In this document: piece by piece, positions 14,437-46,878 of the stretch
Layout of the letters: every line of letters starts with the position of its first letter
Position numbering within the stretch: the stretch's first letter is position 1
Virus record (IMG/VR): IMGVR_UViG_2529292735_000017
Reading direction: 5' to 3' (one strand)
DNA: 46,878 nt
Origin: a virus
Taxonomy: Duplodnaviria; Heunggongvirae; Uroviricota; Caudoviricetes
Program-made: the position numbers and the translations under genes
The notes under the pieces: model-generated
What the model saw: the letters and a program-made list of their open reading frames with translations, nothing else
What the model was told of the DNA's origin: nothing
The model's database searches: none

Positions 14437-14476
14437 ATTGCGGAATTAATTACGGACCGTTATTATTCTGCTCCCG

Positions 14477-14552
14477 GCCCTTTAGCTCAGTGGTGAGAGC
14501 GAGCGACTCATAATCGCCAGGTCGCTGGTTCAAATCCAGCAAGGGCCACCAT
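14477..14552 (+). tRNA. tRNA, anticodon CAT (ileX/ileZ-like tRNA-Ile2; Met not excluded by anticodon alone)
   Basis: 76 nt with 7-bp acceptor stem GGCCCTT/AAGGGCC, anticodon loop cTCATAa, GGTTCAAATCC T-arm, 3' CCA; closely resembles remembered E. coli ileX. Confidence 0.85.
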
Positions 14553-14651: not shown

Positions 14652-14728
14652 GCGTTGTTAGCTCAGCCGGACAGAGCAATTGCCTTCTAAGCAATCGGTC
14701 ACTGGTTCGAATCCAGTACAGCGCGCCA
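14652..14728 (+). tRNA. tRNA-Arg (anticodon TCT)
   Basis: 77 nt; acceptor stem GCGTTGT/ACAGCGC, anticodon loop CTTCTAA, GGTTCGAATCC T-arm, 3' CCA. Confidence 0.85.
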
Positions 14729-42554: not shown

Positions 42555-45500
42555 GTGAATATGGCAGTAAAGATTTCAGGTGTACTGAAAGACGGCACAG
42601 GAAAACCGGTACAGAACTGCACAATCCAGCTGAAAGCAAAACGTAACAGTACCACTGTGGTGGTGAACACGCTGGCCTCAGAAAATCCGGATGAAGCCGG
42701 GCGTTACAGTATGGACGTTGAGTACGGTCAGTACAGCGTTATTCTGTTGGTGGAGGGATTCCCGCCGTCACATGCCGGGACCATCACCGTGTATGAAGAT
42801 TCTCAACCCGGTACGCTGAATGATTTTCTCGGTGCCATGACGGAGGATGATGCCCGTCCGGAGGCACTGCGACGTTTTGAACTGATGGTGGAAGAGGTGG
42901 CGCGTAACGCGTCCGCGGTGGCACAGAACACGGCAGCCGCGAAGAAGTCAGCCAGCGATGCCAGCACATCAGCCCGTGAGGCGGCAACCCATGCGACTGA
43001 TGCTGCAGGCTCAGCACGCGCAGCCAGCACGTCAGCCGGACAGGCCGCGTCGTCGGCTCAGTCAGCGTCTTCCAGCGCAGGAACGGCATCAGCAAAGGCC
43101 ACTGAAGCATCAAAAAGTGCTGCCGCTGCAGAGTCCTCAAAAAGCGCGGCGGCTACCAGTGCCGGTGCGGCGAAAACGTCAGAAACGAATGCGGCAGCGT
43201 CACAACAATCAGCAGCCACTTCTGCATCCACCGCGACCACGAAAGCGTCAGAAGCAGCCACCTCAGCCCGGGATGCGGCGGCCTCAAAAGAGGCAGCGAA
43301 ATCATCAGAAACGAACGCATCCTTGAGCGCCAGTAGCGCAGCTTCCTCGGCAACGGCGGCAGGAAATTCCGCGAAGGCGGCAAAAACGTCCGAGACGAAC
43401 GCCAGGTCTTCTGAGACGGCAGCGGGACAGAGCGCCTCAGCTGCGGCAGGCTCAAAAACAGCGGCTGCGTCATCTGCCAGTGCCGCGTCAACAAGTGCCG
43501 GGCAGGCCTCAGCCAGTGCCACCGCCGCCGGAAAATCGGCAGAAAGCGCCGCATCATCCGCTTCAACAGCCACAACGAAGGCTGGCGAAGCCACTGAGCA
43601 GGCCACGGCAGCAGCGAGGTCAGCTTCCGCAGCGAAGACATCCGAAACGAACGCGAAAGCGTCGGAAACCCGTGCAGAATCCTCAAAAACGGCCGCGGCA
43701 TCGTCCGCCAGTTCGGCGGCGTCATCGGCATCATCGGCGTCTGCTTCAAAAGATGAGGCGACCAGACAGGCGTCAGCAGCGAAGGGCAGCGCCACGACGG
43801 CATCCACGAAGGCGACAGAGGCTGCTGGTAGTGCGAAGGCAGCAGCTCAGAGCAAAAGTACGGCGGAATCTGCAGCAACGCGCGCTGAGACAGCGGCAAA
43901 ACGGGCAGAGGATATTGCATCCGCCGTGGCGCTTGAGGATGCGAGCACGACGAAAAAGGGGATAGTACAGCTCAGTAGTGCGACTAACAGCACTTCCGAG
44001 TCACTGGCGGCAACACCAAAAGCCGTTAAGGCCGCGTATGACCTGGCTAGCGGGAAATACACCGCACAGGATGCAACGACAGCACAGAAAGGGATAATCC
44101 AGCTAAGCAGCGCGACCAACAGCACGTCTGAAACGCTGGCCGCGACACCAAAGGCAGTAAAAGCAGCCAATGACAATGCTGAGAAACGTCTGCAGAAAGA
44201 TCAGAACGGTGCGGATATCCCTGGCAAAGACACCTTTACGAAAAATATTGGTGCCTGCCGTGCCTTCGGTGGGTCAGTAAGCACAACAACAGGAAACTGG
44301 ACGACTGCACAGTTTATCGAGTGGCTGGATTCTCAGGGAGCATTTAACCATCCCTACTGGATGTGCAAGGGTTCCTGGTCTTATGGCAATAATAAAATCA
44401 TTACTGATACTGACTGCGGTAATATTCATCTCGCCGGAGCTGTCATTGAAGTAATGGGGATAAAATCAGCGATGACGATCCGCATTACCACACCGACCAC
44501 CTCCACTGGTGGTGGAACAACTAACGCCCAGTTTACCTATATTAATCACGGAACAGATTATTCACCTGGCTGGCGAAGGGACTATAACTCCAGAAATAAG
44601 CCAACGGCATCAGAGATCGGGGCGTTACCGTCAGGTGGAACAGCAGTATCATCAGTTAATCTGTCTTCAAAAGGTCGGGTAACCGCGCTGACAGACAATA
44701 CGCAGGGGGCAACAGGTCTTGAGTTATACGAGGTGTATAACAACGGATATCCAACAGCGTATGGAAATATCATTCACCTGAAAGGGATGACAGCCGTTGG
44801 CGAAGGTGAGTTACTCATCGGCTGGAGTGGTACAAGCGGTGCTCATGCTCCGGCATTTATTCGTTCACGACGGGATACGACCGACGCAAACTGGTCGCCG
44901 TGGGCGCAGCTTTACACCTCGGCTCATCCTCCTGCAGAGTTTTATCCAGTCGGTGCACCAATCCCGTGGCCATCAGATACCGTTCCGTCTGGCTATGCCC
45001 TGATGCAGGGGCAGACTTTTGACAAATCTGCATACCCGAAACTTGCAGCCGCTTATCCGTCAGGCGTGATCCCTGATATGCGTGGCTGGACGATTAAGGG
45101 CAAACCTGCCAGTGGTCGGGCCGTATTGTCTCAGGAACAGGACGGCATTAAATCGCACACCCACAGCGCCAGCGCATCCAGTACGGATTTGGGGACGAAA
45201 ACCACATCGTCGTTTGATTACGGCACTAAATCCACGAATAACATCGGGGCGCATACGCACAGTGTGAGCGGTACAGCCGCAAGTGCCGGAAACCATACTC
45301 ATAGTGTCACAGGCGCATCAGCAGTCAGCCAGTGGTCACAAAATGGGTCAGTACATAAGGTAGTGTCTGCGGCCAGTGTGAATACAAGTGCTGCAGGAGC
45401 GCACACTCATAGTGTCAGCGGCACAGCTGCATCTGCAGGTGCTCACGCACATACTGTCGGTATTGGTGCTCATACGCACTCGGTTGCGATTGGCTCACAT

Positions 45501-45587
45501 GGACACACCATCACCGTTAACGCTGCTGGTAACGCGGAAAACACCGTCAAAAACATCGCATTTAACTATATTGTGAGGCTTGCATAA
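42555..45587 (+). CDS. stf: Side tail fibre protein (Stf-like) with Ala/Ser-rich repeats and C-terminal His-rich HxH repeats
   Basis: 1010 aa; long low-complexity repeat region (…AAKTSETNA… units), and C-terminal HTHS/HAHT/HGHT repeats typical of receptor-binding tips. Confidence 0.85.
42930..43910 (+). repeat. Ala/Ser/Thr-rich imperfect tandem repeat region within stf
   Basis: Recurring motifs [24 protein letters not shown](S/G)EAT in the translation; generates long antisense shadow ORFs. Confidence 0.6.
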
Positions 45588-46171
45588 TGGCATTCAGAAT
45601 GAGTGAACAACCACGGACCATAAAAATTTATAATCTGCTGTCCGGAACTAATGAATTTATTGGTGAAGGTGATGCATATATTCCGCCTCATACAGGTCTG
45701 CCAGCAAACAGTACCGATATTGCACCGCCAGATATTCCGGCTGGTTTCGTGGCTGTTTTCAACAGTGATGAGTCATCGTGGCATCTCGTTGAAGATCATC
45801 GGGGTAAAACGGTTTATGACGTGGCTTCCGGCGACGCGTTATTTATTTCTGAACTCGGCTCATTACCGGAAAATGTCACCTGGTTATCCCCGGAAGGGGA
45901 GTTTCAGAAGTGGAACGGCACAGCCTGGGTGAAGGATACGGAAGCAGAAAAACTGTTCCGGATCCGGGAGGCGGAAGAAACAAAAAACAGCCTGATGCAG
46001 GTAGCCAGTGAGCATATAGCGCCGCTTCAGGATGCTGTAGATCTGGAAATCGCAACGGAGGAAGAAACCTCATTGCTGGAAGCCTGGAAAAAATATCGGG
46101 TGTTGCTGAACCGTGTTGATACATCAACTGCACCTGATATTGAGTGGCCTACGAACCCTGTCAGGGAGTAA
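45587..46171 (+). CDS. tfa: Tail fibre assembly protein (Tfa)
   Basis: 194 aa; ATGA overlap with stf stop; typical position. Confidence 0.85.
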
Positions 46172-46197
46172 TCATTGGGATTATGCCGCAGCACGTC

Positions 46198-46878
46198 TTA
46201 AGCAAGAACGTGCTGCGGTTGGATGCTATTTTTCCCTGAAGCGGAAAACATTACTACAGTACCTTGAACCTTGGTTTTAACATTCTCGAAATGCTCTGAG
46301 AGTATATGTGTTAAGCCTTCTTCGGAATCTTTTGTGTTTGAAAAGATGCCTTTCTGATTGTAAATGCGCATCAGTTTTTGACCGAAGCTATTGTGCACAA
46401 CTCCATCGCCAAGAATTGTGGCTCCGTATAGAGTTCCATCGTCAGTTAAGGCCTGCGCCGCATTGCGTATTACACAGCTTTTTGTAGATATATTTCCAGG
46501 CAGGCAGTGAAGAAGGTAAAACATGGAAATGGAATCAAATTGACCATGTAACGCCGCGGGATAAGGTTCAAAAACATCATGGCTAATTTTATGTTTAATT
46601 TTTGATTCCCCAGCCCTTGTAGATGCCGCGTTCAGGCTAGCTTCGTTCAAATCCATTAAAGATATCAGACTACTCTCAGGTACGTGAGTAAGGTAAAACC
46701 CAGTTCCAACACCAATATCCAGATGGTTGTTACCTAAATGTTCCAGAAAGTGTGGAAGAAGGTGTTCCTTTGTAGGACATCCCCATGCAAGCCGATTTGA
46801 TACTCCCAAAACCCACCAGTCATAAAGCTTTAGGGTAAGTGGTGTGTAAATTTTAGCCCCATCATCTGTGTTTTTTTT
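46198..46878 (-). CDS. Class I SAM-dependent methyltransferase (N-terminus runs off the window; partial)
   Basis: Minus-strand frame stays open to the window end; motif I-like HLDIGVGTGFY; AT-rich; convergent with tfa. Confidence 0.6.
   Translation of the reverse strand, partial: KKNTDDGAKIYTPLTLKLYDWWVLGVSNRLAWGCPTKEHLLPHFLEHLGNNHLDIGVGTGFYLTHVPESSLISLMDLNEASLNAASTRAGESKIKHKISHDVFEPYPAALHGQFDSISMFYLLHCLPGNISTKSCVIRNAAQALTDDGTLYGATILGDGVVHNSFGQKLMRIYNQKGIFSNTKDSEEGLTHILSEHFENVKTKVQGTVVMFSASGKNSIQPQHVLA

Follow-up and report, generated by a model that had tools for sequence, protein, structure and literature searches.

At the end of the viral record IMGVR_UViG_2529292735_000017 (Caudoviricetes), whose whole stretch of 46,878 nucleotides is referred to here as the window, the tail fibre genes are followed by an open reading frame (ORF) on the opposite strand. 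The question raised by this locus is which gene is encoded there, whether it is intact and on what its product acts. An earlier annotation made from the letters only (the sequence-only reading) had described a partial methyltransferase dependent on S-adenosylmethionine (SAM), carried as terminal cargo. According to the present analysis, the ORF is almost certainly an open and intact ortholog of ybcY, which encodes a class I SAM-dependent methyltransferase of lambdoid prophages; this assignment covers both the identity of the gene and the fold of its product. The protein is best read as a cytoplasmic enzyme methylating a small molecule, encoded by a phage-carried accessory gene that benefits the host. 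The probability of this statement as a whole is estimated to be about 0.6.

Identity and fold of the gene product

The minus-strand frame at positions 46198-46878 comprises 226 stop-free codons up to the TAA stop codon at 46198-46200 and is still open at the edge at 46878. Its G+C content is 41.6% (35.7% at third codon positions), compared to 50.0% for the window and 55.2% for the region from J to tfa that precedes it. On the plus strand, the neighbouring gene (45587..46171) is the tail fibre assembly gene tfa, as determined by the Pfam domain Caudo_TAP (E = 2e-45) and by the annotation of the same locus in E. coli GPEC1189. The description of a minus-strand, AT-rich ORF that runs off the window and is convergent with tfa was thus confirmed.

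The last 1379 bases of the window were matched over at least 80% of their length in 1497 E. coli records, the top two being 99.9% identical. In GPEC1189 (99.9% DNA identity), the annotation of the locus gives a 'class I SAM-dependent methyltransferase' of 222 residues (WP_001569541.1). The annotated ATG lies 15 nt past window position 46878, so that five codons (MVKLI) are absent from the window and about 98% of the protein lies within it. The ybcY coding sequence in the window (46198..46878, minus strand) reaches from codon 6 of a 231-codon allele through its last codon and the TAA, and was assigned by the open frame, the match to WP_001569541.1, Pfam and phrog_2132. Continuing past 46878 in the 99.9%-identical genome, as had been proposed earlier, recovered the full ORF and its neighbours, and the frame is uninterrupted upstream in that genome. 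The methyltransferase is therefore partial in that its ORF exceeds the window, but the shortfall is only 5 codons as judged by GPEC1189.

The match to phrog_2132 is full-length (E = 2.6e-156), with residues 5-222 aligned to profile positions 1-218 of 218. The cryptic DLP12 prophage of E. coli K-12 contains the same gene, b0562 ybcY, in matching gene order between tfaD and tfaX, where it carries a pseudogene annotation, and the record of phage PhiR29_1 names its copy YbcY. The gene is already known and not new: it has a name, a RefSeq annotation and a phage orthologous group, and most E. coli genomes contain it; as a discovery it carries little weight.

The protein has a mass of ~24.5 kDa and consists of a single domain. 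Four generic class I domains of Pfam exceed their cut-offs, namely Methyltransf_12 (37.5 bits vs. a gathering cut-off of 30, E = 4e-9) and likewise Methyltransf_23, Methyltransf_25 and Methyltransf_11. In the AlphaFold2 model (predicted local distance difference test, pLDDT, 90.1; predicted template modelling score, pTM, 0.87), seven strands alternate with flanking helices, which corresponds to the class I arrangement.

An alignment of 61 homologs of 54-99% identity contains 49 invariant columns. Motif I, DIGVGTGFY, which the sequence-only reading had recognized in the ORF, is encoded at 46693..46719 (minus strand) and corresponds to residues 54-62 of the window translation. It represents the glycine-rich SAM-binding loop after beta-1 (residues 51-55 in the model; LDIGVGTG spans residues 53-60), and D54, G56, G58, G60 and Y62 are invariant. 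The post-I motif LMDLN (46645..46659, minus strand) is located at the end of beta-2 (residues 71-75 in the model), with D76 and N78 invariant. In the class I fold, an acidic residue at the end of beta-2 binds the ribose hydroxyls of SAM; by analogy, D76 is predicted to be this residue in YbcY. The motif II/III region (46495..46581, minus strand) extends from HDVF (residues 100-103, after beta-3) to FDSISMFYLLHCLPG (residues 114-128, beta-4 and loop), and further strands were modelled at residues 94-98 and 114-120. H100, S116, S118, L122, H124, C125, L126 and G128 are invariant in this region, and D101 and D115 are nearly so.

Motifs I-III had been named as a test of the methyltransferase reading, and motif I, D76, the HD pair at residues 100-101 and the strand-4 loop were all present. 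The features of class I SAM-dependent methyltransferases were likewise found, i.e., motif I, the post-I acid, the seven-stranded sheet and Pfam scores above threshold. Fold and motifs, as read from the sequence and the predicted structure, are those of a class I methyltransferase, and YbcY is predicted to bind SAM.

The word-indexed search resulted in 2292 homologs. An exhaustive search of 50%-identity cluster representatives yielded 1318 matches at E<=0.001 and 193 at E<=1e-30. The names given to the homologs are generic only, e.g., 'UbiE' (from an automatic pipeline) or 'methyltransferase type 11'. The ratio of nonsynonymous to synonymous substitution rates (dN/dS) was 0.09 vs. Citrobacter and 0.11 vs. 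Klebsiella, with dS near saturation, and the family is under purifying selection. Since there are 2292 homologs, 49 invariant columns and a dN/dS of about 0.1, the conservation of the ORF is far beyond chance. One E. coli variant of ybcY (P0001, 265 residues) carries a 43-residue internal tandem duplication reaching from beta-4 to beta-5.

Substrate class and state of the allele

DNA, RNA, a small molecule and an effector function had all been listed as possibilities in the sequence-only reading. The present findings favour a small molecule and disfavour DNA and a secreted effector, and RNA is kept in play. Between a small molecule on the one hand and RNA or protein on the other, the balance tips modestly towards the small molecule.

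As a small-molecule enzyme, YbcY would move the methyl group of SAM to its substrate in the cytoplasm of the lysogen. Metabolites, lipid-like acids, quinone-like compounds and xenobiotics would be candidate substrates. No stretch of YbcY is hydrophobic enough for a signal peptide or a membrane span (the top 19-residue Kyte-Doolittle mean is 0.95). In class I small-molecule enzymes, the N-terminal helix and the insert between beta-5 and beta-6 make up the substrate pocket. Both parts of YbcY contain residues that are invariant outside the SAM motifs: Y19, D20, W21, W22, N28, W32 and C34 in the N-terminal helix (pattern YDWWVL...N...W.C), and N163, Y173, N174, F179, N181 and D184 in the insert. 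The conserved aromatic helix and the conserved insert would together form the pocket. Among PDB entries, juvenile-hormone-acid methyltransferase and UbiG gave the best sequence matches. The gene would be kept for a benefit to the host (lysogenic conversion) and not for phage replication.

For the analysis of neighbouring genes, one genome was scanned for each species; of the 270 loci obtained, 80 were kept. These belong to the enteric genera Escherichia, Citrobacter, Enterobacter, Klebsiella, Salmonella, Yersinia, Erwinia, Pantoea, Proteus, Morganella and Photorhabdus, as well as to Pasteurellaceae, Pseudomonas, Xanthomonadales and Oxalobacteraceae; farther relatives occur in Acidobacteria, marine plankton and lichen-forming fungi. 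Outside Escherichia, orthologs of 50-65% identity are encoded as stand-alone chromosomal genes, e.g., in Salmonella, Enterobacter, Yersinia, Proteus, Pseudomonas and the Xanthomonadales. The Enterobacter homolog is located between an ABC transporter and an alpha/beta hydrolase, the Yersinia homolog within an island of small ORFs near a GDSL autotransporter, and the Salmonella homolog next to cybB. The gene order suggests that the latter is STM1638, the neighbour of the small RNA gene rydC.

The 737 ORFs around the 80 loci were clustered, and no family was present in more than 14 loci, so that no conserved partner gene was found. Recurring neighbours are either generic (LysR regulators, short-chain dehydrogenases) or due to synteny within a single genus, such as the CorA-like, amidotransferase and enoyl-CoA hydratase genes in Pseudomonas. 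The restriction or effector partner for which a check had been suggested is thus not common to these loci, and no nuclease neighbour was detected. Fusions among distant relatives comprise one with a cytochrome P450 and one with RCC1 repeats; the extensions of other long relatives gave no Pfam match.

These results bear directly on the possibility that YbcY is a DNA methyltransferase, either an orphan or a part of a restriction-modification or anti-restriction system, which protects phage or host DNA. Orphan DNA methyltransferases are frequent in prophages, and one weak PADLOC match to the methyltransferase component mad2 (E = 0.0033) points in this direction. However, both motif IV, (D/N/S)PP(Y/F/W), and PCQ are absent from YbcY by pattern search, and the model shows a single domain of 222 residues that lacks a target-recognition domain. 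In addition, neither a restriction gene nor any other partner is shared across genera in the 80 loci. A small molecule is favoured over DNA because motifs of DNA methyltransferases, a recognition domain and a partner gene are all missing and one relative is fused to a P450. With no motif IV, no partner gene and one weak PADLOC match, a DNA methyltransferase or defence system was rejected as a candidate; this explanation is largely refuted and is considered very improbable.

The position downstream of the tail fibre genes would also fit a type III secreted effector in an 'exchangeable effector locus', as effector genes are located at the tail fibre end of lambdoid prophages in enterohaemorrhagic and enteropathogenic E. 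coli. Position is the one point in favour of this explanation. Against it, ybcY is found in 71% of the complete E. coli genomes, including K-12 laboratory strains, and as a chromosomal gene in Enterobacter, Klebsiella, Proteus, Pasteurellaceae and soil bacteria. Furthermore, no known effector family was matched in the Pfam and NCBIfam scans, and an effector function is hardly to be expected.

Methylation of a tRNA or rRNA base or of a protein side chain, by which YbcY would tune translation or a host protein in the lysogen, is unlikely. The fold does not distinguish it from the methylation of a small molecule, and the isoelectric point (pI) of the family is uninformative. On the other side, the model shows a bare catalytic domain of 222 residues with neither an RNA-binding extension nor an extra domain, and no tRNA or rRNA methyltransferase family was matched in NCBIfam or Pfam. 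The patchy and partly phage-borne spread is also unlike that of a housekeeping RNA modification, and the P450 fusion of one relative indicates small-molecule chemistry.

Esterase- or lipase-type genes were observed near family members in four unrelated contexts: a phage alpha/beta hydrolase (L004 4956-6440), the Enterobacter alpha/beta hydrolase (L006 7584-8414), the Yersinia GDSL autotransporter (L009 8170-10173) and SseJ in Salmonella (L003 404-1630). In twelve Pseudomonas loci (e.g., L049 5905-6594), a gene of the enoyl-CoA-hydratase family follows about 120 nt downstream on the same strand. As a weak lead, the esterase and enoyl-CoA neighbours and the matches to juvenile hormone acid methyltransferase would fit a carboxylic-acid or acyl substrate. 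Klebsiella and Proteus loci (L025 139-783, L064 3457-4683) provide a separate observation: a 214-residue protein with no Pfam match is shared near the methyltransferase in seven loci, six of which also share a 408-residue protein. Both look like genes of mobile elements, which would suggest mobile islands.

A more specific proposal is that YbcY is a lysogenic-conversion enzyme with one particular substrate. Such an enzyme might, by methylation, render an antimicrobial heterocycle or quinolone-like toxin inactive, in the manner of mycobacterial Rv0560c, or it might methyl-esterify a fatty-acid-like compound alongside the nearby esterase-type genes. This is put forward as a long shot. If true, it would represent the first function for a gene that lambdoid phages spread and that ~70% of E. 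coli genomes carry. More generally, ybcY encodes a very common phage-borne enzyme which is under purifying selection from E. coli to Pseudomonas.

Several points weigh against the reading of YbcY as a host-benefiting small-molecule enzyme. The NCBIfam search gave nothing near a cut-off, the best equivalog scores being 15.6-17.4 bits vs. cut-offs of 175-390, and the papers found on ybcY, the DLP12 methyltransferase and STM1638 name the gene only in lists; nothing relevant was found in the literature for ev243. The pI of the family (7.2-9.2) is neutral to mildly basic and is compatible with a nucleic-acid or protein substrate. The benefit for the host is assumed. In one study, Hha toxicity was unchanged in a K-12 ybcY mutant, although the K-12 allele is a pseudogene anyway. 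The translation start has to be considered as well. The native start of ybcY is probably the ATG at codon 5, judged from the sequence: the 218-residue orthologs start with MKKNT, and the phages and the common E. coli allele have this ATG with GGTGA upstream at a Shine-Dalgarno-like spacing (alignment columns 725-745). In the genomes closest to the window, however, codon 5 is ATA instead of ATG. The start annotated in GPEC1189 is an ATG four codons upstream of codon 5, where no obvious ribosome-binding site is found (L001 9380-9396). The expression of the window allele may thus be lowered if its codon 5 is ATA as in the closest genomes; the window ends one base before that codon.

The second peculiarity of the allele is found at its 3′ end, where the window has the homopolymer T5 at 46229..46233, which is A5 in the coding direction. 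In the usual allele, this run is T6 and the stop codon TAG is located at 46226-46228: when GPEC1189, K-12, ev243 and PhiR29_1 were aligned with the window, the others showed A6 followed by TAG, and their protein ends with ...SASGKK. With A5, the frame shifts and continues for 10 more codons through a hairpin to the TAA, giving the C-terminus ...SASGKNSIQPQHVLA. The last lysine is swapped for 10 residues, and the window allele is thereby 9 residues longer. With longer queries, each match listed was 1 nt longer than the query. Among the matches listed, the A5 allele was found in 2 E. coli records at 100% identity, and in 3 of the 3823 matched records at an identity of at least 99%.

The 5′ end contains another homopolymer, visible as T8 on the plus strand at 46871..46878, where it is cut by the edge; it comprises codons 6-8 of ybcY. 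By alignment, this run is A9 in GPEC1189, A8 in ev243 and PhiR29_1 (T8 followed by C on the plus strand) and A7 in K-12, where the frame is broken and ybcY is a pseudogene because 2 nt are lost from A9 to A7. In 60 evenly spaced E. coli records, the length of the 5′ tract differs only in the K-12 derivatives (−2 nt) and in two others (−1 nt). Phase variation by slippage in the A-runs was considered and rejected, as the length changes are rare mutations.

It is conceivable, though improbable, that the window allele is decaying, poorly expressed or inactive and is heading towards the pseudogene state of K-12. The rarity of the 3′ A-run frameshift is consistent with such decay, as are the ATA at codon 5 in the two closest genomes, the loss of ybcY in K-12 through slippage in the 5′ A-run, and sizeable clusters of truncated variants (e.g., a 161-residue form with 445 members). 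On the other hand, the frameshift alters only the last residue and the tail, and the catalytic motifs and the remaining frame are intact. In the closest genome, translation is annotated to begin at an in-frame ATG four codons further upstream, and for a gene of E. coli HS13-1 that shares the 3′ frameshift, the annotation gives a protein of 227 residues. As the added residues fall into a disordered part of the model with a pLDDT <50 (residues 220-226), the 1-nt deletion and the added tail are probably harmless, and no functional effect is expected from the model. Strains like the source of the window have an open copy that is usable for biochemistry, which the K-12 pseudogene is not.

Locus and spread in E. 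coli and phages

The gene order in GPEC1189 is J, lom, stf, tfa, ybcY (opposite strand), tfa fragment, appY, ompT, envY, ybcH and nfrA, which in K-12 is the DLP12 prophage locus at its right end. The ybcY of the window occupies the orthologous position between tfa and the tfaX fragment, the part beyond 46878 being read from the 99.9%-identical genome. In phage ev243 (Nesevirus), the tail fibre genes are followed by ybcY (opposite strand), a tfa fragment, a 494-residue alpha/beta hydrolase, ompT and int. PhiR29_1 shows the same run to ompT and then other small genes, and no integrase was present within the stretch read. In lambda, this site is equivalent to the non-essential b-region, where lambda-like phages of the DLP12 type carry ybcY. 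The gene is accessory phage cargo located after the tail fibre genes, which agrees with the earlier description, but it is not terminal, since a tfa fragment and more accessory genes lie beyond it.

Out of 5426 complete E. coli genomes, 3832 (71%) contain ybcY, with 1-4 copies each and a nearly always chromosomal location. In isolated temperate phages, 15 records match, of which 14 are full-length and one is a short fragment, with a protein identity of 99-100%. They include ev243, 2G7b, PhiR29_1, Kati and Turner. Two metagenome-assembled genomes labelled as Bacillus sp. and Planococcaceae (L014 and L022) also contain short contigs with a ybcY 100% identical to that of E. coli; contamination or misbinning is the most likely explanation.

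The ybcY cassette is bracketed by two copies of the tfa 3′ end. The left copy of this direct repeat is located at 46006..46148 (plus strand) in tfa, and the right copy is the tfaX/tfa fragment past ybcY, outside the window. By blastn, the tfa 3′ end (120-143 bases) is 86-89% identical to L001 9556-9698 and L002 8980-9122, and to sequences in L004 and L005. In ev243, which has a different tail fibre module, the similarity to the window starts at 46052 and thus within the tfa repeat. From this we infer that homologous recombination in the conserved tfa ends either transfers the cassette between phages or serves to retain it.

In HS13-1 (L012 6004-12057), two copies of ybcY are located 5.4 kb apart, the first of which carries the rare 3′ frameshift of the window. 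A tfa fragment, an alpha/beta hydrolase, ompT, an integrase fragment and another tfa fragment were found between them. This arrangement looks like stacked prophage remnants at one site and would account for genomes with several copies.

Between the convergent tfa and ybcY, a G+C-rich inverted repeat GCCGCAGCACGT...ACGTGCTGCGG is located at 46185..46219, which the ybcY frame of the window enters. Its RNA fold has −30.2 kcal/mol (z = −3.5), and the repeat is kept in K-12, GPEC1189, ev243 and PhiR29_1. A canonical intrinsic terminator was considered for this position and rejected: despite the strong hairpin, a simple terminator scan made no call, because the hairpin has no adjacent T-run. A 55-codon ORF (46113-46280, plus strand) extends across the end of tfa and the hairpin and, on the strand opposite to ybcY, across the 3′ end of the latter. 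Many RefSeq genomes list a shorter version as a 'hypothetical protein' (WP_001309429.1), and the ORF is probably a spurious call.

In K-12, a constitutive sigma-70 promoter and H-NS binding were described for the ybcY/tfaX spacer (PMC3946193). For uropathogenic strains, ybcY was noted as a neighbour of ompT (PMC6854850).

Elsewhere in the window, the prophage encodes two tRNA genes on the plus strand, tRNA-Met (CAT) at 14476-14551 and tRNA-Arg (TCT) at 14652-14728. The side tail fibre ORF (42555-45587, 1010 residues) contains a low-complexity stretch of ~360 residues rich in Ala, Ser and Thr. The same region, at about 42900-44000 in particular, has a strong AT skew of 0.3-0.44 and 62% GC.

Comparison with known systems

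The closest known counterpart is ybcY of K-12 (b0562, DLP12; WP_001569541.1 / WP_000239877.1; PHROG 2132), which is the same gene with a nucleotide identity of ~98-99%. The neighbours are also the same, with the convergent tfa upstream, the tfaX fragment on the other side and then appY/ompT/envY. The copies differ in that the one in K-12 is a pseudogene (5′ A9 to A7), whereas the window copy is open and additionally carries the rare 3′ A6-to-A5 change.

In the lambdoid phages ev243, 2G7b, PhiR29_1, Kati, Turner and others, ybcY is likewise located after the tail fibre module and before a tfa fragment. The cargo that follows is different: an alpha/beta hydrolase (494 residues) and ompT were found in the phages, compared to appY-ompT-envY in the genomes closest to the window. 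The tail fibre module of ev243 also differs from that of the window.

STM1638 of Salmonella and the orthologs of other Gammaproteobacteria belong to the same family. They are 217-230 residues in length, share the conserved residues and show 50-65% identity. In contrast to the gene in the window, these chromosomal orthologs lie outside prophages, and their neighbours are different in every genus.

The solved small-molecule methyltransferases (juvenile hormone acid methyltransferase, UbiG, RebM, BelI, DhpI, PmtA and Rv0560c) share only 9-21% identity with YbcY. The substrate-binding parts are not alignable with those of the solved enzymes, and therefore no substrate can be transferred to YbcY. 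With 15.6-17.4 bits vs. NCBIfam cut-offs of 175-390, YbcY also falls outside the UbiG, UbiE, RquA and PmtA equivalogs. It belongs to the class I SAM-dependent methyltransferases and to PHROG 2132, and neither to an equivalog family of known substrate nor to a family of DNA methyltransferases.
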